Origin: Candidatus Tenderia sp.
GTDB lineage: Bacteria > Pseudomonadota > Gammaproteobacteria > Tenderiales > Tenderiaceae
NCBI GenBank assembly: GCA_031416075.1
Contig: JANOSY010000077.1
Location: forward strand, 1 to 14,085
Reading direction: 5' to 3'
Length of the DNA: 14,085 bases
Made by a program: the position numbers and the translations under genes. Below, piece after piece: positions 1 through 14,085 of this stretch. Position 1 is the first letter of the stretch. Each line of letters starts with the position of its first letter. A model generated the notes under the pieces. The model ran no database searches, had not been told where the DNA came from, and was given only the letters and a program-made list of their open reading frames with translations.

Positions 1-482
1 TACCCTCCGCTCATAATTGATTACTCGCCGCGCCCAACTCGCTAGGGGTTGGGGGAGGTTCGTCTCTCGTTCCAATATTTGAGCTTGCCTGTCTGCTTCA
101 TTGTTTCAGCGGCGTTTGTGAAAAGATCAGGTTAGGAGAACTTCGTTCGTGGCCCTACATACATGCCCAACTCGATGAGCTAAAACGATGCAACCGTGTG
201 TTGAATGATGAACTCCAAAAAGAGTAAAGGCACTTGGTCAAATTGACGTTTTTGGTCTGATCGCCAGACAGCTAATCAGCGACTTCAGCCAAACCGATGA
301 CCCGCTATTACGTGAGTTTAGTGAAAGACTACATGCCGCGATAAATGACTTGTCTAGAATCAAGCCCCCTCGTTTTTGACGGTAGTCGGGCGATCTAACA
401 GGAAAACGGTCGGCTTCGTCAATCATCGTCAATATCATCCCGGCTGAAACCATGCGGTGGCCGATGGATGAGGTTGGCCCGC

Positions 483-647
483 GGCGAGTGGGTGCAGGTA
501 TTCGGCGATGCGAAGATGACGACTGCCCTACTGGATCGCGTCACCCGCCACTGCGACATCCTGAAGACGGGGAACGATTCCTATCGCTTCAAGCATCGTA
601 AAAATACCTCTCAGAAAACTAAAAAACTGGAATGTATTGGACGCTGA
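483..647 (+). pseudogene. istB: 3' remnant of IS21-family helper ATPase IstB
   Basis: Manual translation [40 protein letters not shown]...* matches the IstB C-terminal signature ([31 protein letters not shown]). Upstream sequence does not continue the protein, so it is 5'-truncated. Confidence 0.9.
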
Positions 648-677
648 TTAGTGGAAAGTATTGGATGCTGTTTGACA
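628..677 (+). mobile_element. IS21-family right end with tandem subterminal repeats
   Basis: TGGAATGTATTGGACGCTGA (628-647) and TGGAAAGTATTGGATGCTGT (652-671) repeat with a 24-bp period and end in ...TTGACA (677), overlapping and following the istB stop. This is the usual IS21 end layout (terminal CA, multiple repeats). Confidence 0.85.
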
Positions 678-691
678 CAGAGAAAACAGCA

Positions 692-737
692 ACATTATGG
701 AGCGCCCGCAAGTGATTGCTTTGGCGCTCCATAATGT
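692..737. repeat. Perfect 15-bp inverted repeat overlapping the TA promoter
   Basis: ACATTATGGAGCGCC (692-706) / GGCGCTCCATAATGT (723-737), with an inner GCAA-GTGA-TTGC mini-stem (708-719). Confidence 0.85.
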
Positions 738-755
738 ATATACTTTTGTTTAAAC
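716..755 (+). promoter_or_regulatory. sigma70 promoter and probable autoregulatory operator of the TA operon
   Basis: TTGCTT (716-721)-17 bp-TATACT (739-744). Palindromes GTATATAC (736-743) and GTTTAAAC (748-755) overlap or adjoin the -10. RBS AGGAG at 767-771. Confidence 0.7.
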
Positions 756-777
756 GTCTTTCATTCAGGAGCTGGTC

Positions 778-1032
778 ATGATTGAGGTGGTTCTCGATAT
801 CAAAAAGTGGGGCAATAATCTCGGTGTTCGGTTACCTGCCGCCATTGCCCGTGAAGCGCATCTGCACGCCGATCAGAGTGTGCGCATTTCAGTATCAGGT
901 AATCAGGTGATTATTTCACCAATCACCGATGAGCCACTCACGTTGGAGCAACGGCTGGCCTGTTTCGACCCGGCACGTCACGGTGGCGAAGTCATGGCAT
1001 CTGGTCAGGCAGTAGGGGCTGAACGGTGGTAG
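778..1032 (+). CDS. mazE: AbrB/MazE/SpoVT-family antitoxin
   Basis: 84 aa with N-terminal KKWGNNLGVRLP swapped-hairpin motif and C-terminal LTLEQRLA...HGGE...GAERW. Overlaps the toxin start. Confidence 0.92.
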   Translation: MIEVVLDIKKWGNNLGVRLPAAIAREAHLHADQSVRISVSGNQVIISPITDEPLTLEQRLACFDPARHGGEVMASGQAVGAERW

Positions 1033-1424
1033 CAACAAGGCCAGGTTCAATGGGGAAACAGAGGGCGTGGGTGCCTGATCGCCAGGGCATCATCTGGATC
1101 GACTGTAACCCCCAGATCGGGCAGGAAATGCGCGATATTCACCCGTTTCTGGTTCTGTCACCGCGTATTTTTAACGAGAAAACATCGCTGGTCATCGGGT
1201 TTCCCATGACAACAGCGGAATATAACGCCGACAACCCCTTTGCCGTAGTCGTTGGAAAGTCCGCGGGCCGTAAAACAGGAAAGACAAGCTACGTTCTCTG
1301 CCATCAACCGAAGTCATTCGACTGGCGATTGCGGGGAGGCAAGGCTCACCCGCTTAAGTCGTTAGCTGATGACCTGTTTGTGCAGGTATGTGAGCGCCTG
1401 AATCAGATTATTCAGATCGCGTAA
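1026..1424 (+). CDS. mazF: PemK/MazF-family endoribonuclease toxin
   Basis: WVPDRQGIIWIDCNPQIGQEMRDIHPFLVLS, PMTT and LCHQPKSFDWRLR are PemK-type motifs. GTG start overlaps the antitoxin 3' end; an alternative ATG is at 1050. Confidence 0.92.
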   Translation: MVATRPGSMGKQRAWVPDRQGIIWIDCNPQIGQEMRDIHPFLVLSPRIFNEKTSLVIGFPMTTAEYNADNPFAVVVGKSAGRKTGKTSYVLCHQPKSFDWRLRGGKAHPLKSLADDLFVQVCERLNQIIQIA

Positions 1425-1475
1425 GCTGGTAAAAATCAGTATCAAGATTCTTCACCACGATAGCAAAAATGGGTG

Positions 1476-1508
1476 AAAAACCCCCGGTCCGCAAACGCGA
1501 TACCGGGG
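1476..1508 (-). terminator. Rho-independent terminator between convergent toxin and helicase genes
   Basis: CCCCGGT (1482-1488) / ACCGGGG (1502-1508) stem, with A5 at 1476-1480 forming a U-tract on the minus strand. Confidence 0.65.
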
Positions 1509-1517
1509 TGAATGACA

Positions 1518-3281
1518 TCATGCAACCAACTGCTTGGCCAGGGCGATCTCGATGCTGTCACCGTCCTGGTTCAGAACATCAAGGCCCGTATCGGGTGTGT
1601 CGCCAGAGGTGGACTGCGACACCGCGATCTTCTTGGCCATGAGGGTCAGGCAGGGGATCTGCGCCGATTTTTCATACCACAGGAAATACACGTCTACGGG
1701 TTGCTTCTGGCCGATTCGCCATGAGCGGTGGGCGGCCTGTTGCAGGGTGTAGACGTTGTAGCCGGTCTGGACAAACACGATGGTCGGAAAGTCCAACAGA
1801 TCCAGGCCTGTCTTGACCAGCTCGGGGTTGGTAATCAGCATATCCACCCCGCGCTCGAGCTGGTCCAGGATCCAGTCCTCCCGCTTACTCGTGTCCACCG
1901 TGGCCCGTAACACCGACGCCTTGAACCCGGCCTGTGACAGCAAGGCCTTCAGGCGTGACGCGGTATCTCGGGTCCCCGTGTAGGTCGTGTAGACCAGCGC
2001 ACGCCGGCCACGGGACTTTTCGGCCCGGCAGATCTCCAGCAAACGCACCTCCTTGGGGCTCGCCTCATCCTCGCCGAAGACGGTTGGGACAAAGGCCAGC
2101 AGCTGCCGTGCGCGCGGATGTTTGACCACCTCCTCGCGGAAGCAGCAGTCCGGCCACGCCAGCAGCACGTTGAGGACCACACCCAGCAGGCTCTTATCAC
2201 CGCGCCGCAGGGCCTCTTTCAACCCCCCTTTAAGGTTCATCGCCAGTGCCTCGTAACGCGACTTCTGCTCACCGGCCATACCGACCTCGACGTAATGCTC
2301 CTGGTAAGGAGGCAATACATCTCCGCCGATCTCTTTCAGCTTCAGGAACACCGTATAGGGCAACACATACCTGGCGATGCCCTTGGGGCCGAAGCCTGAT
2401 CCCTTCTTGGTGTGGACTGTGACCTTTTTGCCCCGCGCGGTACGATGGCTAGCCCCTTCGGTCTCCTTGTAGACATCGATCAGGATCCCATGCTCACGCA
2501 TGAAGCCCATGCTGGTCGTCCCCAGGCTGCCGTGGCGGTTGCGGGTGTAGCCGTCCTCGATCATCTGCCGTGGCATGATGCGTCAGAAAAGATGAAACAG
2601 GTCGTCGGCATACCCTCCCATCAAGGTGCCCGTGAGGAGCAGCACCTTTTTAATCTTCGCCGCCAGGACCCCCATCGCCTGGCCCTGAGCACTCCCTTCG
2701 TTCTTGTACTCGTGTGCTTCGTCCACGATGAGCAAGTCGAAGTATCCCTGTGGCAGATACCGCTTCACAAACTCCGTGGGTTGGTATCCGCCCTGGCCAA
2801 AGGCGAACTCGGTGGTGCCCAGTGCCCGCTCGATGCGTTTTGCCTGGCTGTCGGAGAAGACCAGCTCGCCATCGCTGTCCATGAGGTTGACGAACTCATA
2901 GACATTGTCGGCCAGCATCCCCGTCAACAGCGCTTCGCCGAAGCGCTGCAGCAGTCGCTCCGCAGTTTTTGGACCAATGGTAGGAATTTGGCACAGGGCC
3001 TCCTTCATCACCGCCTGCCGGTCCTTGGGTTGGCCCGGGCGCATCAGCGTCCAGAGCGGTTCCCTGCATTGATTGCAGACACTCCGCCGATCCCCGGCAT
3101 GTTCCGCGAACCGATCAAGAGGGATGTAACTACCCTCATCATCGGTGACCGGTGTACCACAACGGCCACAGGCCGCCACCTTGATGGACTCCACGAAAGA
3201 GGGCGATGACTCATTGCCTTCCTCCGTGAAGCGCCGGCGGTGGAGCACCCGTACCGACACCGCTGGCCGCCAGTGAAACCC
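1518..3281 (-). pseudogene. ICE-associated SNF2/DEAH-like helicase, 5'-truncated with a premature stop
   Basis: ORFs 2583-3260 and 1518-2576 share one frame, separated by a single TGA (2583-2585: DLFHLF*RIMPRQMIEDGY). Motifs present: IVDEAHEYK, LTGTLMGGY, LVKTGLDL, RSWRIGQ, CxxC..CxxC and an HhH-like IPTIGPKTA. Similarity extends up to GFHWRPAV (~3281), where the IS21 end cuts it; motif I is missing. Confidence 0.85.
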
Positions 3282-3285
3282 CCTT

Positions 3286-3370
3286 TGTTGTCGCTGACCG
3301 AAAACTGACCCATTTATAGGCGTTGTGCCGATCCAAAATTGACCCAGGTGTTCTACTTGCCCTGCCTAAC
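3286..3370 (+). mobile_element. IS21-family left end
   Basis: Starts TGTTG at 3286. Subterminal repeats GCTGACCGAAAACTGACCCA (3293-3312) and GCCGATCCAAAATTGACCCA (3327-3346). Runs on into the istA RBS and start once the nested IS110 element is removed. Confidence 0.85.
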
Positions 3371-3480
3371 GAATGAAAGGGACTTCCCCGTCCCGAGGCG
3401 GCGGAGAAGTTTCCGCGAACGGCAACAAGTGCCATGATGGAATTTTGATCATTTCATCAACACCACAAAAGGGGAAGTCC

Positions 3481-4461
3481 ATGAACATTATCACCGTAGG
3501 AATCGATCTCGCCAAGAGCGTATTTGCCGTACATGGCGTCGATGATAGCGGCAAAGCCGCGCTGATCAAACCGAAAGTTTCACGCGCGGATTTGCTACCG
3601 CTGATCGCGCAACTGTCGCCGTGCCTGATCGGCATGGAAGCGTGTTCAGGTGCGCACCACTGGGCGCGGCTGTTCCGGCAGTATGGTCACACCGGCAAGC
3701 GCGGCAAGAACGATGCGGCGGATGCCGCCGCCATCTGCGAGGCGGTCACTCGCCCCACTATGCTGTTCGTCCCGGTCAAGGAAGAGCAACAACAGATCAT
3801 CCTGTGCCTGCACCGCACCCGGCAAGGGTTCGTCGAAGAGCGCACCGCCAGCTACAACCGCCTGCGCGGCCTGATCGCCGAGTTCGGCATCGTCCTGCCA
3901 CAGAAAGTCACCTGCCTGCGCCGCGAGATCGGCGCGCACCTGGAAGCCCTGCCGGGCTATGCCAACCTGTGCGTCGGTGACCTGCTGGCGCACGCCGATC
4001 AACTCGATGTGAAGATCGCCGAATACGAGCGCGCCATCGCCCAGGCAGCGCGTTACGATGCGCGCAGCCAACGGTTGATGACACTCCCCGGCATCGGCCC
4101 GGTCACCGCCAGTGCCATGCTGGCCAGCATCGGCGGCGGCCACGACTTCAAGAACGGACGCCAGGTGGCGGCGTGGATCGGACTGGTGCCGGGGCAATAC
4201 AGTAGCGGTGGCAAGGCGCGGTTGGGACGTATCACCAAGGCCGGAGATCATTACCTGCGCAGCCTGCTGATCATGGGCGCGCGAGCGATACTAAACAGTT
4301 TGGGCGACAAACAGGATCGCTTCAGCCGTTGGGCCAGATCATTACAGGAGCGGCGCGGCTACTGGCGCGCAGTGGTTGCCATCGCAGCGAAAAATGCGCG
4401 GCTGGCCTGGGCGGTGTTGAAGTACGGCGAAGATTTCAAACGGGAGCCGGGCAACATCTGA
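3481..4461 (+). CDS. IS110/IS1111 DEDD recombinase (326 aa), probable short in-frame deletion
   Basis: GIDLAK, MEACSGAHHWAR and KNDAADA form the DEDD tetrad; LPGIGP, GLVPGQYSSGGK (catalytic Ser loop), GDHYLR and AIAAKNAR are present. The ATG at 3481 follows AAGGGGAAG; the ORF-track start at 3373 lies inside the element end. Confidence 0.92.
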   Translation: MNIITVGIDLAKSVFAVHGVDDSGKAALIKPKVSRADLLPLIAQLSPCLIGMEACSGAHHWARLFRQYGHTGKRGKNDAADAAAICEAVTRPTMLFVPVKEEQQQIILCLHRTRQGFVEERTASYNRLRGLIAEFGIVLPQKVTCLRREIGAHLEALPGYANLCVGDLLAHADQLDVKIAEYERAIAQAARYDARSQRLMTLPGIGPVTASAMLASIGGGHDFKNGRQVAAWIGLVPGQYSSGGKARLGRITKAGDHYLRSLLIMGARAILNSLGDKQDRFSRWARSLQERRGYWRAVVAIAAKNARLAWAVLKYGEDFKREPGNI

Positions 4462-4549
4462 ACGAACAAAAAACCAAAACCGTCTGCCAACGAGAAGAGA
4501 CTCGAAAGGAATAGATACACCGCCGAGCGGCGATTAAAGAATCACCGAT

Positions 4550-4720
4550 GCACTGCCAGCGTTGATGTGAAGCGGGTTGGACCCGCGCCGGGAGAGCCTG
4601 ATCAACTTTATGGGGAGAAGTAGACCCCGACTAACGATTGAGGTCCCGGCGCGCGTCTTTCATCAGGGTCCGGGCGAATGCCCAATATGACCGTTTGTAG
4701 TTTAGCAGTCCTTCACCTTC
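4550..4720 (+). ncRNA. Putative bridge RNA / seekRNA of the IS1111 element (boundaries approximate)
   Basis: Perfect 10-bp stem CGCGCCGGGA (4584-4593) / TCCCGGCGCG (4644-4653) encloses an internal loop and a GGGG/CCCC hairpin. A second module has GGTC/GACC and GGGC/GCCC stems. Loop segments match target and donor junction sequences. Confidence 0.7.
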
Positions 4721-4842
4721 TTACACGATGCAAGCAGCGCGATTTGAAACGGAACAGAACAGGAAAAAACAATGAACTAAAAAAACATCAACAGCACTTG
4801 CGAATTTGGGGAAGCCCTTGTAGTTTAGGCAGGAGATAAAAG

Positions 4843-4908
4843 GTGATCACTATGGAAATGTTTGGAAAGATTCGACGGATGTATTTTCGCGACAATCTGT
4901 CGCTGCAT
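4843..4908 (+). pseudogene. istA: 5' stub of IS21-family transposase IstA
   Basis: RBS AGGAG (4831-4835) and GTG at 4843 give MITMEMFGKIRRMYFRDNLSLH, a typical IstA N-terminus. The sequence then switches abruptly to the opposite-strand deacetylase. Confidence 0.8.
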
Positions 4909-5251
4909 GTAGACGTTGAGGTAGCCGTCGTCCATGGTGAGGGCGATGGTTTTATCGGGCAGCGCTTTGCCGTGGCGTAGCTGTTCTATAGTCTTTGCCA
5001 GTGGCCAGACCTGGAAGTTGTTTTCTTGTAAAAATTTTAGCTGTGCTTCGAACTGATCGAGCCGGACGCTGGTGGTCGGGTAGCGGTCCTCGCCGACGTG
5101 GTGATACATCACCGCTACGGCGGAGTGCTGTGCGGCGTGGCTGCTGTTTATCTGGCTGAGGAACATGCTGGCCAGCAGGATGAGAGGGAGGTAATGGTTG
5201 AATATGGTGATTTTTAAACTGGCAGGAGGGGGTGTTGGGCGATGATAACAT
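4909..5251 (-). pseudogene. Polysaccharide deacetylase (NodB/PgaB-like) N-terminal fragment, 3'-truncated
   Basis: VMYHHVG, SVRLDQFEAQLKFL and KTIALTMDDGYLNVY (TFDDGY-type motif), then reads into antisense istA. A signal-peptide-like stretch (LPLILLASMFLSQINSSHA) precedes the domain. The true start is uncertain. Confidence 0.8.
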
Positions 5252-5262
5252 CGCCCAACACC
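5231..5262. repeat. Perfect 14-bp inverted repeat
   Basis: GGTGTTGGGCGATG-ATAA-CATCGCCCAACACC just after the ATPase stop codon, with no clear U-tract. Confidence 0.8.
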
Positions 5263-5268
5263 TTACGG

Positions 5269-7722
5269 TTATTTGATACAGACAGTCCGTATTTGTGTCA
5301 GGTCGGTGTAGCCTTGCAGGATCTTTTCGATGCCATCCTGCTTCAGGGTACGCATGCCGTCATTGAGGGCCGCTTTCTGGATTTTGTAGGCAGGGGCGTG
5401 TTCGAGAATCATCTGTTTGATGTGTGGGGTGGCGATCAGGAGTTCGTGCAGGCCGATGCGGCCATGGTAACCGGTATCGTTACACTCTTTGCAGCCGGGT
5501 GCTTTATAGAGTGTGAGCTTGCCGTTTTTGCCAAACCGCCGTACCCACTGTTCTAGCTGTTGGTCGATAACGGCTTTTGTCTCTTCGGCAGTGGCGTTGT
5601 CGGGGATGAGTCCGGCGCAATACTCGTGGGCTAGCTGATGAATCTCACGGACGTTGGAGTGGTAGGGGCGCTTGCAGCTGGGGCAGAGTGTTTTGGCCAG
5701 CCGCTGGGCGAGTATGCCGACCAGGGCGTCGGCAAAATTAAACGGGTCCATGCCCATGTCGAGCAGTCGTGTGACACTTTCGGCGGCGCTGTTGGTATGC
5801 AGTGTTGAAAGTACCAAGTGGCCGGTGAGCGAGGCCTCAATGCCGACACCGGCGGTTTCGGCATCACGCATCTCACCGACCATGATGATATCGGGATCGG
5901 CGCGCAGAAAGGCCCGCATGGCGGTGGCAAAGTCGAGACCGATCTTGGGGTTGACCTGTACCTGACGCAGCCCGCTCTGGGTGATCTCGATGGGATCTTC
6001 TGCGGTCCAGATCTTGCGATCGGCATTATTCAAGTGGCCCAGTACGGAGTGCAAGGTGGTGGTTTTACCTGAGCCTGTGGGGCCACAGACGAGAAACAGG
6101 CCATAGGGCTGGGCGATGGCAGCGAGCAGTTTTTCAGCGTTGCTACTGCTCAGGCCGAGGGCGTTGATGGGGATGTTTTTACCGCTGCTGAGTATCCGCA
6201 TCACCACATCTTCCAGTCCGCCGGCGGTGGGCAGGATGGCAATGCGCAGCTCTATGTTGGCCGGGCCATACTGTTTGAAGTTGATTTTGCCATCCTGTGG
6301 TTTACGCCGCTCGGAGATGTCGAGCCGTGACATGACTTTGATACGTGAGATTAAGGCGTTGCGGTATTGGGGCGGGAACTGGTGGTAGACCGCCATGGTG
6401 CCATCTTTGCGAAAACGTACAACCACCTTTTTGTTGCCAGGGTTGGGTTCGATATGAATGTCGGAGACCCCTTGCTGGTAGGCGTCCATGATGATTTTGT
6501 TGATGATTTTAACAACGATATTGTCGGTGACTTCGCTCTCTTCGTGGCTGGTAAAACCATCACTCTCAAACTTGCCGCTGTTGAATGAGCTGTCATCCGG
6601 CTCATCCCCTTCTGGTTCGATGGCGTTCAGTATATCTTCTGATGAGTAGTAGAACTGTAACGCCCAGTTGATATCTTCGGTGATGCCGATGACAGGCTCT
6701 ATATATTTGTTGGTATGAAAACGCAGTGCATCCAAGGCCTCCCAATCCATTGGGTTTTCGATGGCCACCGCCAGCTTGCCCTCATATTGATAGAGCGGGA
6801 TCACCTTGTGTTTGAAGGCTAGGTTGGCCGGTATTTTGTGAATGATGTCCGGGCTGACTTTGAACTCCTGCAAATTAACAAAGGGGATGCCGAGTTTTTT
6901 GGCCAGCGCCTGCTGAATCTGTTCGCGGCTGACAATGCCGTTGTCGATCAGGATTTCGCCCAGCGGTTTGCGGCGCTCTTTTTTTTGCGTCATCAGGGCA
7001 TCTTCAAGCTGTAGCTCATCGATCAGATTTTCGCTGATCAAAATTTCGCCGAGTTTGAGGCTGGGCATCGCCTTCTGCTGTTTTAATGCCTTTTCCAGCT
7101 GGCTGGAGTCGACAATGGTGTGGCTGATCAGGTACTCCCCCAGGGGTTTGGTTCGGGCGCTGTGCTGGATCTCCAGTGCACTGGCAATCTCCTCACGAAC
7201 CACCCCTTGGTTCTTGATTAAAATCTCGCCAATGGGTTCGCCAATGATGTTGCTATGAATGGCGCTTTTGGGGATAAACAGATGTAGGTATTGGGGCAGG
7301 TACTGGTTGGTATTGTGCTGTTTAAACAGATGAATGCCCTGCTGATCGACCCGGCTGCCGTAGGTTTTACCACTAAACTTACTGTTGTCTTTGAAGGTGA
7401 TGGTGAACTCTTGTGGCTCGGTGGATGAGGTGATCGATTTTTTATTGCCCCAGCTGATGGCTGGGTCGGGCGTGAAGGGGATGGGTTGTGTGAGCTGCAT
7501 GGTTTTGATGTCGGCCATGTTCACCTCATGCAGTTCGCCACCCTCTTTATGGCTCAGGCCGATGATGGCGTTGCCAGTATCAAACCGGGTAAGTTTGCCC
7601 TCTATCTTTTTACCGCTCACTAAAAACAGAACAATGGCCGCATTATTAAAAGTGGCCACGTTTTCTGGATTTGAGAGTGGCGGGAGCGGCAGGATAATTT
7701 TATCATTCAGGTCCATCATCAT
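5269..7722 (-). CDS. GspE/PulE/PilB-family secretion or pilus ATPase with MshEN-like repeats and an N-terminal extension
   Basis: SDIHIEP, LDISERRKPQDG, Walker A GPTGSGKTT, TAEDPIE, Walker B IIMVGEMRD, His box GHLVLSTLHTNSA and CPSC..CKEC. AAGGA spacing favours the third ATG (7716) as start. Confidence 0.93.
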   Translation of the reverse strand: MMMDLNDKIILPLPPLSNPENVATFNNAAIVLFLVSGKKIEGKLTRFDTGNAIIGLSHKEGGELHEVNMADIKTMQLTQPIPFTPDPAISWGNKKSITSSTEPQEFTITFKDNSKFSGKTYGSRVDQQGIHLFKQHNTNQYLPQYLHLFIPKSAIHSNIIGEPIGEILIKNQGVVREEIASALEIQHSARTKPLGEYLISHTIVDSSQLEKALKQQKAMPSLKLGEILISENLIDELQLEDALMTQKKERRKPLGEILIDNGIVSREQIQQALAKKLGIPFVNLQEFKVSPDIIHKIPANLAFKHKVIPLYQYEGKLAVAIENPMDWEALDALRFHTNKYIEPVIGITEDINWALQFYYSSEDILNAIEPEGDEPDDSSFNSGKFESDGFTSHEESEVTDNIVVKIINKIIMDAYQQGVSDIHIEPNPGNKKVVVRFRKDGTMAVYHQFPPQYRNALISRIKVMSRLDISERRKPQDGKINFKQYGPANIELRIAILPTAGGLEDVVMRILSSGKNIPINALGLSSSNAEKLLAAIAQPYGLFLVCGPTGSGKTTTLHSVLGHLNNADRKIWTAEDPIEITQSGLRQVQVNPKIGLDFATAMRAFLRADPDIIMVGEMRDAETAGVGIEASLTGHLVLSTLHTNSAAESVTRLLDMGMDPFNFADALVGILAQRLAKTLCPSCKRPYHSNVREIHQLAHEYCAGLIPDNATAEETKAVIDQQLEQWVRRFGKNGKLTLYKAPGCKECNDTGYHGRIGLHELLIATPHIKQMILEHAPAYKIQKAALNDGMRTLKQDGIEKILQGYTDLTQIRTVCIK

Positions 7723-7892
7723 TCCTTGTCTATCATGGCATTGCAGATCACGGGGAATGGTGTGATGACGACTATTGAACTGTTGTCACTGTGTAAACGC
7801 ACCGGGTTATTTGATGCATGGATTCTCCCCTGTTGAGGTGAGTATCGGCCAAAGGAAAGGGGATGTTAGTAGGGGGGGTGCAGGGAGCGAAT

Positions 7893-8861
7893 CTACTGCC
7901 CGCTAATGGTAAACGGATCGGCGTAAATCTCCTGGAAACCGGCACCGGCAAGAAAGCAGTCCCGTTTAGTGTTGTTCACCATCTCCGGATGGCCGCAGAG
8001 GTAGACACTCCAGCCGTTCAGTTTGGGAAACTGCTTCAGGGCAATATCATTGGCGCGGCCTGCTGTGATTCCCTGGCTATTGTTGCCGGAGAGGCAGGGG
8101 GTGTAGTGAAAATTGCTGTGTTGTCTGGCCAGTGCATTGAGTTCATCCACCAGATAGAGCCGTTCTGCTGAGCGACTGCCGTGGAAAAGGTGGATCTCCC
8201 CTTGGTGGTGCTGTTCCAGCGCGGCACGGGCGATCCCCCAGAGTGGTGCCAGACCGGAGCCGGTACCTATCAGTAACATATTTTGTTGTGGCTTCTCGCC
8301 TAGATAAAAACAGTCACCATGGGCACCATCAATGTTGAATTGGTCGCCAGGATTGATCTGATCGTGGAGCCATTGGCTCATCTGGCCATTGGGGAGGAGC
8401 TCTACATGTAGCTCCACCACCCCTTCGCTGGGCAGACTGGCAATGGAGTAGCTGCGGATCAAACCGTCGGGACGGTGCAGGTTGATAAACTGGCCTGCTT
8501 GAAACTCAAAGGGCGACGCGGGTTGTAAACGCAGGCGCAGGGTTTGGGGATTTAATTGGGTTTTACTGATAACGGTGACCAAAACCTTAGGTAGGGCCTC
8601 ATTGCCCGCCAAGGCAACCTGCATATCGGTTGTTGTTCTGCAGATGCAGGGCAGGAAAAAACCGCGATGTTGCAGCGTGGATTTTAGCCCTTTTTGTGAA
8701 TCTGCTGGGGGAGTCCCCTCAACTGCACGCATCATACAGGTCTGGCAGCTACCGCTGCGGCAGGAGGAGGGTGGCTCCGCACCCTGGCGTATCAGCGCCT
8801 CTAAAACAGTTTCATCAGCATGACAACTGTATGTAGTTCCAGAGAAGGTGATTGTTGCCAT
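7893..8861 (-). CDS. 2Fe-2S ferredoxin / FAD-NAD(P)H oxidoreductase (FNR-like)
   Basis: CRSGSCQTC...LPC plant-type 2Fe-2S motif; RSYS and GQMS (FAD); GTGSGLAP and YLCGHPEM (NAD). Confidence 0.93.
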   Translation of the reverse strand: MATITFSGTTYSCHADETVLEALIRQGAEPPSSCRSGSCQTCMMRAVEGTPPADSQKGLKSTLQHRGFFLPCICRTTTDMQVALAGNEALPKVLVTVISKTQLNPQTLRLRLQPASPFEFQAGQFINLHRPDGLIRSYSIASLPSEGVVELHVELLPNGQMSQWLHDQINPGDQFNIDGAHGDCFYLGEKPQQNMLLIGTGSGLAPLWGIARAALEQHHQGEIHLFHGSRSAERLYLVDELNALARQHSNFHYTPCLSGNNSQGITAGRANDIALKQFPKLNGWSVYLCGHPEMVNNTKRDCFLAGAGFQEIYADPFTISGQ

Positions 8862-8879
8862 GGTGCGGGCCGCTCCTGT

Positions 8880-9248
8880 TTAGCGTCCGAGTACGTCTTT
8901 GCGGGTGCTTTCGGCAATAGCGGCAGCTTGCCCGATTAGTTCGGCAGGCACACCCAGCTCAGTCAAGGTGGCACCAAGGTGTTCCATAACGGCGTCGAAA
9001 TGGCTGTCATTTAAGCCGTTAACAACAAGATGTGCGTGGGCGGCACGCATATCTTTACCGGTGTAGCTGTGTGGGCCGCCCAAGGCCATGGTCAGAAATG
9101 CCTTCTGCTTGGTATGTTGGCGCGCCATGTCAGTGGTGGTGAAAAACTGGTTGATACGGGTATCAGCCAGAACTTTGCGGTAAAACAGGTCAACGGCGGC
9201 ATCAACAGCGGCTTCGCCACCAATTTTTTCATATAGACTTTGGGTCAT
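8880..9248 (-). CDS. glbN: Group I truncated hemoglobin (trHbN/GlbN-like)
   Basis: SLYEKIGG, FY (TyrB10), FF (CD1), LGGP..YTG, MRAAH (proximal HisF8), HFDAV..HL. RBS AGGAG upstream. Confidence 0.93.
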   Translation of the reverse strand: MTQSLYEKIGGEAAVDAAVDLFYRKVLADTRINQFFTTTDMARQHTKQKAFLTMALGGPHSYTGKDMRAAHAHLVVNGLNDSHFDAVMEHLGATLTELGVPAELIGQAAAIAESTRKDVLGR

Positions 9249-9323
9249 TTGTACTCTCCTGAAAAAGTGTTGTTATCTATCACGAGCCATTGGGGATTTG
9301 GTGTGGTCTGTGCTGCTTGATAA

Positions 9324-9346
9324 ATAATGTATTTAAAATACATCTT
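9324..9346. promoter_or_regulatory. NsrR-like binding site
   Basis: Minus strand AAGATGTATTT-T-AAATACATTAT fits the 11-1-11 NsrR consensus AAGATGYATTTnAAATRCATCTT, with a perfect 8-1-8 core at 9327-9343. It lies upstream of a globin gene. Confidence 0.8.
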
Positions 9347-9359
9347 ATATCGTGACTGC

Positions 9360-9388
9360 ATTATTCACGGCAATTTACTGGTTGTCAA
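9360..9388 (-). promoter_or_regulatory. sigma70 promoter for the globin-reductase operon
   Basis: Minus strand TTGACA (9388-9383)-17 bp-AATAAT (9365-9360). The NsrR-like box lies just downstream of the predicted transcription start. Confidence 0.65.
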
Positions 9389-9505
9389 TAGGGCTGTTGA
9401 TGAGGTGTTGCCTATTGATGGGTGATCACGGAGTCAGGCAAAAACTGCTGAAAAAGTATAAAATCGGCCCCACTTAAATTATTGTATCAAATCAAGTAGA
9501 TCACT

Positions 9506-11092
9506 ATGTTGACCATTATTGAACAACAGGCCAAACGACGCCGCACCTTTGCCATCATCTCCCACCCGGATGCCGGTAAAACCACATTGACTGAAAAGCT
9601 GTTGCTATTCGGGGGTGCGATCCAGATGGCCGGTACCGTCAAGGGGCGCAAGGCGGCACGTCACGCCACCTCCGACTGGATGGAGCTGGAGAAGCAGCGC
9701 GGCATCTCCATCACCACCTCGGTGATGCAGTTCCCCCATGGCGACAAGATCATCAACCTGCTCGATACCCCCGGCCACGAGGACTTTTCGGAAGATACCT
9801 ATCGCACCCTGACGGCGGTCGATTCGGCGCTGATGGTGATTGACAGCGCCAAGGGTGTTGAGGATCGCACCATCAAGCTGATGGAGGTGTGCCGTCTGCG
9901 CGATACACCGATCATCACCTTTATTAACAAGATGGACCGGGAAGGGCGTGAGCCGATCGATCTGCTCGATGAGGTGGAGGAGATCCTCAAGATCAAATGC
10001 GCCCCTATCACCTGGCCGATTGGCATGGGCAAAAACTTCAAGGGAGTGTTTCATCTCGCCGATGATCGCATCCATCTCTTCAGCTCCACCCATGGTGGCA
10101 AGATCATGGCGGGCGAGGAGATTAAAGGGTTGAACAATCCACGTCTTGATGAGTTGTGGGGTAGCCACATGGCGGCGCAGGTGCGTGAGGAGATCGAGCT
10201 GGTGCGTGGCGCCAGCCATGAGTTTGACCATGACGCCTATCTGCGGGGTGAGGTGACACCGGTCTTTTTTGGTTCCGCCATTAATAACTTTGGTATTAGG
10301 GAACTGCTCGACGCCTTTGCCGAGTGGGCACCAGAACCGCAGTCACGCGAAACCAAAACACGGGTGGTGGAGCCAAACGAAGAGAAGTTCACCGGTTTTG
10401 TCTTTAAGATTCAAGCTAACATGGACCCACAACATCGCGACCGTGTCGCCTTTCTGCGAGTCTGTTCCGGCAGTTACACCAAAGGCATGAAGGTGCGCCA
10501 TGTGCGCATCGCGCGTGACGTGCAGATCGCCAACGCCATCACCTTTATGGCCAGTGATCGTGAGAACATTGAAGAGGCGTTTCCTGGTGACATTATCGGC
10601 CTGCACAACCACGGCACCATCCAGATCGGCGATACCTTCAGCGTGGGTGAGGAGTTGAAATTTACCGGCATCCCCAACTTTGCCCCAGAGCTGTTCCGGC
10701 GCGCCCAGTTGAAAGACCCAATGAAGATGAAGGCGTTGCAAAAAGGGTTGCAGCAGTTGTGCGAAGAGGGGGCAACCCAGCTCTACAAACCGCTGATCAA
10801 CAATGAGCTGATCCTCGGTGCCGTCGGTGTATTGCAGTTCGAGGTGGTGGCTCATCGCCTGCAGGGTGAATACAAAGTTGAGTGTGTCTTTGAACCGGTG
10901 CAGGTCTCAACCGCGCGCTGGGTGATCTGCAAGGATGAGAAAAAACTCGCCGAGTTTAAACGCAAGGCCGAGGATAATCTTGCTATCGACGGTGCCGGAC
11001 AACTGGTCTACATCGCCCCGACACGGGTTAACTTGCAGCTGGCGATGGAGCGCTATCCGGATGTGGAGTTTGTGTCGACACGTGAGCACTAA
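9506..11092 (+). CDS. prfC: Peptide chain release factor 3
   Basis: [72 protein letters not shown] and C-terminal TREH; 528 aa. Confidence 0.99.
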
Positions 11093-11129
11093 GAGTCTGT
11101 TCTAAGCAGCGGTTGGCTCGATCGGTTTG

Positions 11130-11165
11130 ACCACAAAGGCGCAGAGATGCGCCTTTGTGGTTTTT
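11130..11165 (+). terminator. Rho-independent terminator of prfC
   Basis: ACCACAAAGGCGCA-GAGA-TGCGCCTTTGTGGT: 14-bp stem with a GNRA loop, followed by a T-tract. Confidence 0.9.
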
Positions 11166-11401
11166 GGGTTAAGTAGAGTGTAGTGAGCTGCGAATAGAGT
11201 CGTTGTGTTGGATAAAAACCATACATGACGATGCCTGTTAGATAGTCATCCCAATAGATGTTGTTATTTTCCGTTCCATATTGAACTATAGCGTGTGATC
11301 CAGTAACCACCGTAGAGCGGAGGGGTCTTGGATTGTGCAGAACTGATGGGGCCGTGACCAGTAGGGTTGCGGATCAATGCAATCTTCGGGGACAACAATC
11401 T

Positions 11402-12382
11402 ATGAAAGCGATTATGTATGAACGATATGGGCCACCTGAGGTGCTCCAATTGCGGGAGATTGAAAAACCGTCCCCCAAGGATAATGAAGTTTTAATTAAA
11501 ATATGTGCAACGACAGTGACATCTGGCGACTGGCGGGTGCGAAGTCTCACCGTGCCCGTTGGCTTTAGGCTCATCATGCGTTTGGTGTTTGGTATATCAA
11601 AACCAAAACAACCGATACTCGGCACAGAGTTGGCTGGGGTGGTTGAAACGATTGGTAAAGAGGTGAAAAAATTTAAAGTAGGTGATCAGGTTTTTGCGTT
11701 CAATGATGCGGCAATGGGGTGTTATGCCGAGTATAAATGCATGGCAGAAGATGGTGCGATTGCATTAAAACCACCCAGCCTAACCTATGGTGAAGCCGCC
11801 GCGCTCTCTTTTGGCGGAACAACGGCGCTGGATTTTTTTAGAAGAGCAAAACTTCAGAGGGATGAAAGAGTCCTCGTTAATGGTGCTTCTGGCGGGGTAG
11901 GTACGGCTGCGGTGCAGCTTGCCAGACACTTCGGTGCAGAGGTGACCGGAGTGTGTAGTACTTCTAACGTGGAGTTGGTGAGAGCTTTGGGGGCCAGCCA
12001 TGTGATTGATTATACCCAGGCAGATTTCACACAGAATGGTGAGGCCTATGATCTTATTGTGGATACTGCTGGCTCGGCCCCGTTCTCTCGCTGCAATGGG
12101 TCGTTGAAGAGTGGAGGACGGCTGCTGATGGTGTTAGCTGGATTGCCAGAGATGCTTCGAGCGCCATGGGTGTCGATGACAAGCAGTAAAAAAATCATCG
12201 CCGGACCAGCATCCGCATGCGTAGACGATTTGCATTTTCTCGCGGGGCTGGCGGAGGCGGGGGAATTTAAACCGGTGGTTGATCGGTGTTATCCGTTTGA
12301 GCAGATTGTTGAGGCCCACCGTTACGTTGATGCTGGGCATAAGAGGGGCAATGTCATTATATCTCTTGAGAAGGGAGTCTGA
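11402..12382 (+). CDS. MDR-superfamily NAD(P)-dependent alcohol dehydrogenase / quinone oxidoreductase-like protein
   Basis: MKAIMYERYGPPEVL start, ILGTELAGVV, FKVGDQVF, NGASGGVGTAAVQLA and GHKRGNVII. The structural-Zn Cys cluster is absent. ATG 11402 is preferred over the ORF-track start at 11333. Confidence 0.92.
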   Translation: MKAIMYERYGPPEVLQLREIEKPSPKDNEVLIKICATTVTSGDWRVRSLTVPVGFRLIMRLVFGISKPKQPILGTELAGVVETIGKEVKKFKVGDQVFAFNDAAMGCYAEYKCMAEDGAIALKPPSLTYGEAAALSFGGTTALDFFRRAKLQRDERVLVNGASGGVGTAAVQLARHFGAEVTGVCSTSNVELVRALGASHVIDYTQADFTQNGEAYDLIVDTAGSAPFSRCNGSLKSGGRLLMVLAGLPEMLRAPWVSMTSSKKIIAGPASACVDDLHFLAGLAEAGEFKPVVDRCYPFEQIVEAHRYVDAGHKRGNVIISLEKGV

Positions 12383-12585
12383 AAAATCACTGCTGTCTGT
12401 AGACACACGGTAGTCGTCGGAACGTGTTAACACTATTGTTTGAATAGGCCTTGTTGGCATGTGTACACGATTCTCTATGGTATGAATTATTTGCCAGTGA
12501 TAATCGCAGAAACTATTGAATCCGCGTTGCTTGGTTAGATGTAGTTGGCCGGACGCTTACCAATGATTGCGGACATTCACGTTTT

Positions 12586-12604
12586 GATAATGAAGATGAT
12601 TATT
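12586..12604. promoter_or_regulatory. Fur-box-like site
   Basis: GATAATGAAGATGATTATT matches 15 of 19 positions of GATAATGATAATCATTATC, but it lies between two convergent 3' ends. Confidence 0.4.
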
Positions 12605-12613
12605 CAGAACAGT

Positions 12614-13309
12614 TCATCCAGCACTGGCCTCTTTCTTAGGCCTGCCCACCCCTTTCGATACCGAGCGGCGTTGGGCTAGACGCTCGATCTGTTCCTTGAA
12701 CCGTTCACTACCCAGCGCCCAGCCCTTGTGCGTGCACTCCCGAATTTCTTTCAACGCGTCGTTTGAAACAGCCGCCCTGAACAATTGCCGATAGGCGCTT
12801 TGTCGGTCCGTCGCGCTCCGGCCCAGGCGCTGATACTCCTTGTGGGGCGTCAACCAATCCGCGTTCGCACCGGTTTCGCCCTGCGCATTGAAGGCGTAAC
12901 TTGACCAGGAATAGTCCCTTGGGTGCGCCGCCATGTCAGCCCGCACGGGATTGAGTTCGATATAACGCATCAAGGTCAGCAGGTACTGCTCACTATCCAC
13001 CACCGTCGCGCGGTAGCGCCCTTCCCACAAGGTGCCGCTGCGCTTGTAGGTGTAGTTGAAGTACTGCACGTATTTTCTGCCAACAGACTGGAAGACCTTG
13101 CTAATGCTGTCGTCGTATTCAGGGGTGGCCAGCAGATGAATGTGGTTGGTCATCCAGACATAGGCGTGAATGGCCAGGCCTTGCTTAAGCGCGGCATCAA
13201 CCAGCGCATCACGGAAGAACTGATAATCCGCCTCGGCGGCAAAGATGGCCTGCCGGTTGTTGCCACGCTGGATGATGTGCTGCGGCTGGCCAGGGATAAC
13301 GGACCCCAT
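12614..13309 (-). CDS. REP-associated tyrosine transposase (RAYT; Y1 HUH), N-terminus apparently altered
   Basis: HIIQRGNNRQ, MTNHIHLL (HUH), LWEGRY, YIELNPVRA (catalytic Tyr), YSWSSY and C-terminal GRPKK. Confidence 0.9.
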   Translation of the reverse strand: MGSVIPGQPQHIIQRGNNRQAIFAAEADYQFFRDALVDAALKQGLAIHAYVWMTNHIHLLATPEYDDSISKVFQSVGRKYVQYFNYTYKRSGTLWEGRYRATVVDSEQYLLTLMRYIELNPVRADMAAHPRDYSWSSYAFNAQGETGANADWLTPHKEYQRLGRSATDRQSAYRQLFRAAVSNDALKEIRECTHKGWALGSERFKEQIERLAQRRSVSKGVGRPKKEASAG

Positions 13310-13350
13310 TTTTCACATTTTTCGCCATTTTTCTGTGACCCCATTTTTCA
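13302..13350. repeat. REP-like half sites with short tandem repeats at the RAYT 5' end
   Basis: GACCCCATTTTTCA direct repeat at 13302-13315 and 13337-13350. CATTTTTC occurs four times (13307, 13316, 13326, 13342). Confidence 0.7.
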
Positions 13351-13434
13351 TAGATGGTGTTGAGTTCCATCGGTTAGGGAAAGCCGTTCGCGAAGCGTTT
13401 TGGCTACGGAGGGCTTATTTAAAGATTCCTTAAT

Positions 13435-13485
13435 GGGTCCAAAAGCGCTATCGCACCCAAGTGCGATAAAGCGCTTAAAAGACCC
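13435..13485 (-). terminator. Long hairpin, probable terminator of the repeat-protein gene
   Basis: AAGCGCT-ATCGCAC-CCAA-GTGCGAT-AA-AGCGCTT (13443-13476), flanked by GGGTC/GACCC, just downstream of the stop at 13501. Confidence 0.55.
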
Positions 13486-13500
13486 CCTAACTTTCCCTGG

Positions 13501-14085
13501 CTACTGTGTGGTAACGCGGACACTGTATGCGCCAGCGAGCGTCGTCGTCGCATTATTGTGGGCCACTGCGATGTAATAGGTACCACCCGCGCCCGCCGTC
13601 ACCGTGAATTCCGTTTGACGCGAAACGTTGCCAACACCATTGGGTGCGCACTGTTTCGTGATCTCATCCCCATTGTTATTCTGCACGACCAGATAAAGGC
13701 CAGAATAATGAGGGCCACCGGTACAGGCTGCGCCAGATTGATTGGCCAACACCGCCGCAACGTCGAATAACTCGATCACGTAGGTGACGCCTGCGGTGGC
13801 TTGAAAGCGGTACCAATCCACATCGGCGTTCACCGTGTGGTTCACCGATGAGCGACGTGCTTCGATGGTGCTGGTAAACGCATTGCTCAACCCCACCTGC
13901 AACTGATAGGCATTGGCCGCGACGTTATTCGGCTCGTGGGTCGCGTCCCACGCCGCGGCCGCGTTATCGTGCTTGGGCAGGATGCGGATACTGTAGGCGC
14001 CAGTGAGCGTCGTCGCCGCACTATTGTGGGCCACCTTGATGTAATAGGCACCACTCGCCGCCGCCGTGAATTGCGTTTGGCTCGC
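13501..14085 (-). CDS. 3' end of a probably extracellular protein with tandem pre-peptidase C-terminal (PPC)-like beta-domains (partial)
   Basis: Frame is open to the window edge (195 codons including the stop). EPNN...DVDWYRF...GVTYVIE...GTYYIAV..GAYSVRV pattern with a 468-bp (156-aa) internal repeat period. Confidence 0.75.
   Translation of the reverse strand, partial: ASQTQFTAAASGAYYIKVAHNSAATTLTGAYSIRILPKHDNAAAAWDATHEPNNVAANAYQLQVGLSNAFTSTIEARRSSVNHTVNADVDWYRFQATAGVTYVIELFDVAAVLANQSGAACTGGPHYSGLYLVVQNNNGDEITKQCAPNGVGNVSRQTEFTVTAGAGGTYYIAVAHNNATTTLAGAYSVRVTTQ

Follow-up and report, generated by a model that had tools for sequence, protein, structure and literature searches.

An IS1111-type insertion sequence in the hairpin loop of an IS21 leader: probably a half-match landing of an RNA-guided element

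The question raised by this locus is how one insertion sequence (IS), of a kind known to be RNA-guided, came to lie inside the leader of another. The DNA analysed, called the window below, is the 14,085-nucleotide contig JANOSY010000077.1 (positions 1 to 14,085; assembly GCA_031416075.1) of Candidatus Tenderia sp., in which an IS1111-type element sits in the loop of a hairpin that overlaps the ribosome-binding site of the IS21 gene istA. The initial annotation proposed that the element was programmed for IS21 leaders. At a probability of roughly 0.78, we conclude instead that it entered the leader by a single half-match off-target insertion of a guide-RNA element, and not by evolved IS21 targeting. 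The observations used are the anatomy of the element, its empty site, the conservation of the hairpin, the covariation of guides and flanks among relatives, the mismatch of the right guide at the IS21 site, and the absence of other cases.

In itself the locus is an ordinary fossil, one inactive IS within another. It may nevertheless serve as a worked example in which the guides show that a nesting resembling targeted IS21 parasitism is a half-matched stray. The case is relevant to the question of how reliably the guides of RNA-guided recombinases can be read from their natural insertion sites, and to off-target rules for engineered bridge and seek systems.

The nested element, its empty site and the IS21 hairpin

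The two elements are made up as follows.

3287..3371, + strand: IS21-family left end and leader, with terminal TGTTGTCGC..., two AAAA(C/T)TGACCCA repeats, the left hairpin arm at 3361-3369 and the loop bases CG at 3370-3371
3372..4823, + strand: IS1111-type insertion sequence of 1452 bp, delimited by empty-site comparison and by end-to-end alignment to 43 relatives
3377..3389, + strand: left subterminal inverted repeat AAGGGACTTCCCC, complementary to 4808-4819 except for one extra base
3481..4461, + strand: tnp, a DEDD (IS110-family) transposase gene of 326 amino acids (aa), by Pfam and NCBIfam matches
4798..4819, + strand: -35-like TTGCGA (4798-4803) and right subterminal inverted repeat GGGGAAGCCCTT (4808-4819)
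4824..4909, + strand: remainder of the IS21 leader and 5' stump of istA, with loop base T at 4824, right hairpin arm at 4825-4833, Shine-Dalgarno (SD) sequence AGGAG at 4831-4835, GTG at 4843 and ATG at 4852

Excising 3372-4823 joins 3361-3371 (CCTGCCTAACG) to 4824-4833 (TTTAGGCAGG) and leaves a perfect 9-bp stem (3361-3369 with 4825-4833) closed by the 3-nt loop C-G-T, so that the empty site reads CCTGCCTAA-CGT-TTAGGCAGG. This reconstruction, already made in the initial annotation, is confirmed by the sequence and by a naturally joined copy in the same genome. On contig C83 (locus L006), window 3286-3371 matches C83:1561-1646 (- strand) at 99% identity, and window 4824-4909 matches C83:1475-1560 (- strand) at 100% identity, the two matches directly abutting one another. 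A single base, in the second subterminal repeat, separates the C83 copy from the window copy. A DNA contig from sequencing run X2 has the joined form too, skipping the 1452 bases with 59 letters on the shorter side. Comparison with the empty site in C83 reveals no target duplication at the nested element. Its boundary is ambiguous by one G (3371 and 4823 are both G), with 3371-4822 equally possible.

The tnp product matches Pfam PF01548 (DEDD, RuvC-like N-terminal) and PF02371 (C-terminal) as well as NCBIfam NF033542, the model named "IS110 family RNA-guided transposase", with a score of 330.6 bits (cut-off 140). Between the subterminal repeats (3377-3389 and 4808-4819), 12 of 13 positions agree and one base is extra; the automated repeat search skipped the pair because of that inserted base, and it was read from the sequence. 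Members of the IS1111 group are described as having subterminal inverted repeats of 11-13 bp and asymmetric terminal extensions of 7 (or 6) bp on the left and 3 bp on the right (PMC11187229). The extensions here measure 5 and 4 bp with the bounds 3372-4823, and 6 and 3 bp, the pattern of some IS1111 members, with the equally valid 3371-4822, so that the pattern hinges on the single ambiguous G. The non-coding stretch after the tnp stop spans 362 nt (4462-4823) versus 109 nt before the tnp start. We assign the element to the IS1111 group on account of its domains, its subterminal repeats, the long region after tnp and the lack of a target duplication, which are marks of the group as given in PMC11187229. 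These domain matches and the empty site bear out the initial view of an IS1111-type element nested in an IS21 leader.

Relatives were drawn from the best 78 loci of 312, of which 43 align end to end with the nested element at 72-85% nucleotide identity, all sharing the termini AATGAAAGGGACTT...GGAAGCCCTTGTAG; besides the window they represent 37 unique loci. In its own genome the nested element is single-copy, and the other 16 of the 17 genomes of the same taxonomic family yielded no full-length copy. The same-genus genome G002 gave two weak matches of ~45 bp (E ~5e-4). The closest named relative is IS1492, with ~74% aa identity to relative L009. This IS110-family element from the Pseudomonas putida plasmid pWW53 (NC_008275.1) has the same termini, AATGAAAGGGACTTCCCC ... 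GGGGAAGCCCTTGTAG, and the same layout; it is 1467 bp long with an intact transposase gene, whereas the window element is 1452 bp long with a 45-bp deletion. Our literature search found no paper on IS1492. The right flank of one relative (L036:2882-2930) begins with a tandem array of at least three further copies of the last 16 IS bases (GGGGAAGCCCTTGTAG).

Formation of a circle would join TTGCGA, a 17-bp spacer and TAG + AAT into a TAGAAT -10 box. A circular intermediate with a junction promoter has been described for the IS110/IS1111 family (PMC12288879). The outward hybrid promoter TTGCGA-17-TAGTTT, reading from the IS right end into istA, fell below the threshold of the promoter scan, and no outward promoter is claimed.

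The hairpin that the element occupies is a conserved feature of its host. By tblastn the C83 IstA N-terminus has 530 relatives; 80 loci whose products are 68-82% identical to it were gathered, and 77 of the 80 have at least 54 nt of leader with the same layout; all 77 leaders are uninterrupted. Across 47 distinct leaders, 96.7% of pair cells are standard pairs, and 16 double-sided changes occur at three of the nine pairs, e.g., CCT/AGG to CTC/GAG. None of 500 shuffles reached as high a value, and slid registers were only 37-54% paired. The right arm (4825-4833) overlaps the SD sequence AGGAG (4831-4835), and istA likely starts at GTG 4843, 7 nt downstream of AGGAG; three relatives (L110, L120 and L121) have ATG at exactly the GTG position. 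IS21 makes two forms of IstA from neighbouring in-frame starts. The predicted minimum free energy (MFE) is -22.6 kcal/mol for the empty copy (81 nt) versus -11.5 kcal/mol for the occupied copy (91 nt). The statement that the insertion splits a hairpin overlapping the istA ribosome-binding site therefore holds, with the hairpin conserved in the 47 leaders and the predicted structure lost when the site is occupied. Predicted folds also pair an upstream GGTGTTCTACTT with AAGGTGATCAC around the GTG (window 3346-3359 with 4842-4851; leaders of L006, L088 and L134). On these models the whole IS21 leader may hide SD sequence and start codon alike. Independently of the nesting, the conserved hairpin gives this IS21 subgroup a testable regulatory feature at the ribosome-binding site of istA.

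Among the 77 other leaders the loop is mostly TTT, is CTT in three (L089, L099 and L117) and is CGT in none. The motif CTAACG is present in this IS21 leader only because the loop is CGT. The expectation that an uninterrupted IS21 with the same site should exist is thus borne out by C83 within the genome, but not by any of the 77 other leaders. We considered whether the CGT loop might be the footprint of an earlier insertion and excision in an ancestor with a CTT loop; a G stands at both junctions of the occupied copy, and a pre-existing G is simpler. As to the host family, IS21 elements are marked by an IstA with an N-terminal HTH, an IstB ATPase after it, and a TG terminus with repeated subterminal motifs. 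The N-terminal 159 aa of C83 IstA score 126.4 bits against NF033546, whose cut-off of 160 is for the whole protein, and the C83 IstB-like open reading frame (ORF) carries GGPGIGKTH, read by eye. An exact 19-mer of the IS21 left arm had no match in genome_contigs.

The predicted guide RNA and the sites it points to

The region after tnp holds the following predicted parts.

4551..4719, + strand: conserved core of the non-coding region (alignment of 44 sequences), a predicted seekRNA/bridge-RNA-like RNA with two guide-bearing internal loops
4600..4611, + strand: putative right target guide GATCAACTTTAT on the 5' side of the target loop, predicting TAAAGTTGATC as the right flank by complementarity
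4612..4628, + strand: predicted hairpin capping the target loop (alignment columns 68-70/86-88; one pair changed from GC to AU in 2 sequences)
4631..4643, + strand: putative left target guide CTAACG (4631-4636) with extension ATTGAGG (4637-4643), similar to AATGA of the IS left end
4656..4663, + strand: putative right donor guide TCTTTCAT, nearly invariant in the 33-sequence alignment
4667..4692, + strand: predicted cap hairpin of the donor loop (compensatory changes in pairs 132-135/141-144; outer GGTC/GACC pairing read by hand)
4695..4708, + strand: putative left donor guide TTGTAG (= the IS right end) with extension TTTAGCAG

The consensus fold of 33 sequences has 40 pairs, 5 of them with compensatory changes, and a predicted closing stem (4580-4593/4644-4657) surrounds the first, or target, internal loop. 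The last 7 nt of the right donor guide, CTTTCAT (4657-4663), are complementary to ATGAAAG of the IS left end. An Rfam scan of the whole window (E up to 1) returned three weak chance matches, none inside the nested element.

If the right guide specifies the right flank, each relative's guide should fit its own flank better than those of other relatives, and this is the case. In 30 unique pairs, own guides match their flanks at a mean of 5.6 of 11 positions, compared with 4.58 in 828 crossed pairs, and none of 10000 permutations gave so high a value. Seven loci were left out of this comparison (three without a pattern-found guide and four with too little flank), and matches were scored in register, several loci fitting better after a shift of 1-2 nt. 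The left guide reads the same as the left flank at 6/6 positions in the window, and the two also coincide in 21 of the 37 other unique loci. In 34 of 38 loci, 4-5 of the 5 positions compared in its extension agree with the IS left end. The predicted RNA is presumably made and would guide insertion. Given the flanks of the 43 relatives, both target and donor guides of an IS1492-like seekRNA can be read from sequence.

Going 5' to 3', the right guide (complementary to the top strand) precedes the left guide, which is identical to the top strand. For IS1111-type seekRNAs, the top-strand match has been reported to lie 5' of the bottom-strand match (PMC11187229), and the guide order in the predicted RNA is the order so reported. 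Relative to the RNA of IS621, the order of top- and bottom-strand guides in IS1111-type RNAs is described as reversed, and the RNA follows tnp (PMC11187229). The IS621 bridge RNA resembles the predicted RNA in having target and donor guide loops and a handshake-like segment that fits non-cognate DNA (PMC11208158). The right guide of the window element appears longer than that of IS621, at about 9 nt by covariation. The conserved RNA core likewise follows tnp in IS1492 and contains the same donor-guide segments, TCTTTCAT and TTGTAG; the IS1492 left guide, UUAGCG, stands beside a left flank TTAGCG, where the window has CTAACG, and its right guide and flank differ too.

The guides of the window element predict a target with CTAACG to the left of the insertion point and TAAAGTTGA to its right. 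At the IS21 site the left guide matches at 6/6 positions, whereas the right guide matches at only 3/11 (flank TTTAGGCAGGA versus the predicted TAAAGTTGATC). Far better sites are available: the genome holds 716 CTAACG sites on both strands, of which 197 fit the right guide better than the IS21 site does. Three of them fit it at 9/11 and one at 8/11, and all four are empty. Two of these four are hairpins resembling repetitive extragenic palindromic (REP) sequences, of the same kind as in relatives. Two relatives (L027 and L028) carry guides identical to those of the window element and sit elsewhere, L028 beside the flank tggAGTTGAgg, a 7/11 match. The L028 element is an intact natural relative.

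The flanks of the relatives tell against a preference for IS21 in the same manner. The left junction reads AACG in 39 of the 43 and CTAACG in 26 of the 43, and IS21 arms on either side were found in none. The check suggested in the initial annotation, that repeated IS21 leaders among these flanks would support specific targeting, thus turned up other contexts, mostly REP-like hairpin edges. A strong hairpin (MFE <= -15 kcal/mol over 50 nt) is present in the right flank of 28 of 37 unique loci and in the left flank of 1 of 37. The usual place of the relatives is accordingly beside a GC-rich REP-like palindrome, at its edge, a location already known from ISPa11 and ISPpu9. Both of these are described, like the relatives, as having a fixed position at a short palindromic repeat and a small RNA gene after tnp (PMC11187229 for ISPa11, PMC12288879 for ISPpu9); the window copy, unlike them, lies in another IS rather than in a REP. 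ISPpu9 belongs to the IS110 group and lacks subterminal repeats, which the window element has. The REP-like repeat exists in about 2-3 copies in the window genome, in contrast to the hundreds of REPs reported in Pseudomonas (PMC12288879).

No second instance of the nesting was encountered. The 20-mer across the junction and the 21-mer of the empty site with its CGT loop each had 0 matches in genome_contigs and metagenome_contigs, scans that may omit the window's own genome. Repeated occupation was likewise absent, with 0 of 77 IS21 leaders interrupted and 0 of 43 relatives in IS21. Among the papers listed by a literature search, judged by title and abstract start, none concerned an IS1111-type element in an IS21 leader.

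Two further observations concern such target sites. At C70:10445 (+ strand) and C74:48880 (- strand) of the window's own genome, CTAACG is followed by TA(A/G)AGTTGAG and then by the same ~80 bases (ATACCGTCTTGCCTGTCAAG...); this repeated sequence adjoins the cognate motif 10 nt in and may be another mobile element using the same repeat. Separately, six copies of a relative (L010-L015) lie on one 954-kb contig, five of them with a near-identical REP-like right flank, ttaaattgaggggctggcgtagccagtccctctcgaatgt. The left guide of this lineage is TCAACG, yet most of its left flanks are CTAACG.

Routes into the IS21 leader

The right-guide mismatch, the better empty sites and the lack of other IS21 cases are the reasons for favouring a single landing on a half-site. 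The proposed course of events begins with two base changes in the IS21 loop of this genome, from the usual TTT to CGT, which would have created CTAACG followed by T. CTAACG would then have served as a left half-target, and the IS1111-type RNA-guided element would have landed once, in the loop of the SD-occluding hairpin. The RNA encoded after tnp would specify both halves of its target, and the IS21 site would satisfy the left guide only, so that a half match would suffice for insertion in this family. A precedent is available in IS621, which was recently shown to recombine at sites where just one arm matches, an insertion behaviour like that proposed here (bioRxiv 10.64898/2026.08.31.748434).

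Several points weigh against this reading. Only two sites in the genome combine CTAACG with TTTAG, and one of them is occupied while better-matched sites are empty, which would be odd if half-sites were picked randomly. The right flank TTTAG is identical at 5/5 positions to the five bases after the left donor guide, a match unique among the 38 loci, and a second RNA segment may thus have contributed to the choice of site. The score of 3/11 depends on the register: guide registers shift by 1-2 nt in several relatives, and the best hand-shifted register at the IS21 site gives 4/11. The 43 relatives scored came from the best ~80 of 312. Half-match recombination, in the report cited, was shown for IS621, of the IS110 group, and not for an IS1111-type element. 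Finally, the insertion may predate the arrival of this IS21 copy, having taken place in another host.

The second of these points bears on the least unlikely alternative, which refines rather than opposes a half-match landing. Under it, the extension of the donor loop, UUUAG (4701-4705), selected the site among the CTAACG half-sites, acting after strand exchange like the handshake guides described for the IS621 bridge RNA (PMC11208158). The correspondence of UUUAG with the first five bases right of the insertion continues as CAG after a one-base bulge. Elsewhere the extension fits the flank less well, scoring 4/5 in 4 of the 37 other unique loci, 3/5 in 13 and lower in 20, and among the 716 CTAACG sites CTAACG+TTTAG is confined to the two IS21 leaders, the occupied copy and C83. 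The likeness of the target-loop extension to the IS left end, noted above, is what would be expected of a handshake-type segment. The match of UUUAG nevertheless counts for little, because T1, A4 and G5 of TTTAG fit the right guide too, leaving only two extra bases explained, and because T..AG occurs at 14 sites, which puts the coincidence at roughly 1 in 16 by chance. Moreover, the donor extension has only three variants in the family and tracks the flanks poorly, and IS621 has handshake guides of 2 nt in another arrangement. We regard it as possible, while leaning against it, that the locus is a natural record of IS1111-type half-match recombination in which a two-base loop change made a decoy left half-site and UUUAG helped the landing. 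If true, a handshake-like RNA segment could replace the right target guide and shape natural off-target choice.

An improbable alternative is that structure rather than sequence directed the insertion, the transposase complex recognising extruded hairpins or cruciforms and the IS21 hairpin mimicking a REP-like target. The strong hairpins in 28 of the 37 right flanks would agree with this, as would the perfect hairpin of the IS21 site itself, and ISKpn4 and ISPa11 are reported to insert in potentially folded targets (PMC11187229). The geometry differs, however, the relatives lying at the outer base of a long hairpin and the window element in a loop; 9 of the 37 flanks have no strong hairpin, and guide covariation accounts for the flanks without a structural role.

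The proposal of the initial annotation, that the element is programmed for IS21 leaders as IS4321 and IS5075 are for Tn21-type ends, fares worse still and is largely refuted. In its favour, the nesting position is exact, the IS21 end was left intact, the element occupies one of the two sites that this genome offers, and the IS1111 group is known to include members directed at mobile elements, attC sites or REPs (PMC11187229). Against this stand the right guide, at 3/11 in IS21 versus 9/11 at empty sites of the same genome, the two relatives with identical guides that lie elsewhere, the 0 of 43 relatives in IS21 and 0 of 77 occupied leaders, and the usual TTT loop, which lacks CTAACG; the junction appeared in no other record searched. 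IS4321 and IS5075, members of the IS1111 group that insert in the 38-bp ends of Tn21-family transposons, likewise show exact nesting near the end of a mobile element with no duplication. These two, however, occupy the same position in many independent transposons, with nearly 900 insertions for IS4321 (cited in PMC11187229), where ours is a single case, and the usual sequence of the IS21 host lacks the target motif.

Least credible is an assembly artefact, in which repeats would have been joined chimerically to give the nesting or the IS21 truncation: the genome is a draft of 95 contigs, and Logan contigs of run X1 end 29 letters past the right junction and begin 30 letters before the 4909/4910 join against a bridging criterion of 31, but the nested element lies mid-way in a 14-kb contig with unique flanks and is single-copy, its junctions are base-exact relative to the empty site, and difference-free contigs of X1, which may be the source sample, cross 4724-4852 and 4880-5021.

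Decay of both elements and neighbouring features

Both elements are fossils in the window. The tnp gene carries a 45-bp in-frame deletion (15 aa) at about 3690/3691; the missing residues, TVKLMAPKFVAPYRM, are present in all 6 relatives aligned, which are about 337-341 aa long. Because of this deletion, the 326 aa of the product fall below the 330-350 aa range given for IS1111 transposases (PMC11187229), which marks a defective member and not a different family. The missing stretch lies between the second and third acidic catalytic residues; in the solved structure of the ISCro4 transposase (chain 9t56) its counterpart by alignment is the TV.V.NP strand region. Judging from this conservation and the ISCro4 alignment, the deletion probably inactivates the transposase. 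A relative's contig in run X4 has extra letters at the place of the deletion, and a difference-free X1 contig carries the deletion.

The IS21 copy of the window keeps only 172 bp, its homology to IS21 stopping at 4909, about 20 codons into istA. It would have been cut there either later or earlier than the nesting. The copy in C83 (contig of 2183 bp) is decayed too, with an internally deleted istA that is open for 220 aa only and a broken istB-like frame. The initial annotation had taken the istA frame to be uninterrupted and the arrangement to allow hitchhiking; with a stump for an IS21 copy and a defective tnp, an effect on istA expression is moot in the window copy and hitchhiking is impossible now.

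Directly beyond the stump lies one further feature.

4910..5166, - strand: truncated 5' part of a chromosomal gene, fused to the IS21 stump at 4909/4910

This gene is intact (366 aa) in one genome of the same genus, and its product, called from the letters of the gene, appears polysaccharide-deacetylase-like; Pfam gave no match for the 113-aa stump. A 32-bp palindrome (5231-5262), which matched itself on the opposite strand, stands between the truncated gene and a T2SSE-type ATPase gene. On the other side of the IS21 copy, the region 2500-3286 was compared with four same-genus genomes: it is absent in G002 and G004, has a strong match only in G003 and a weak, partial one in G005, which suggests that the region left of IS21 is a variable island. 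Further to the left, positions 778-1424 (+ strand) encode a pair of a MazE-like antitoxin and a PemK/MazF-like toxin. A 231-aa ORF at 12614-13309 (- strand) carries a Y1 (IS200-like) transposase domain (PF01797) and could be a REP-associated tyrosine transposase, which would be of interest given the REP-like targets of the relatives.

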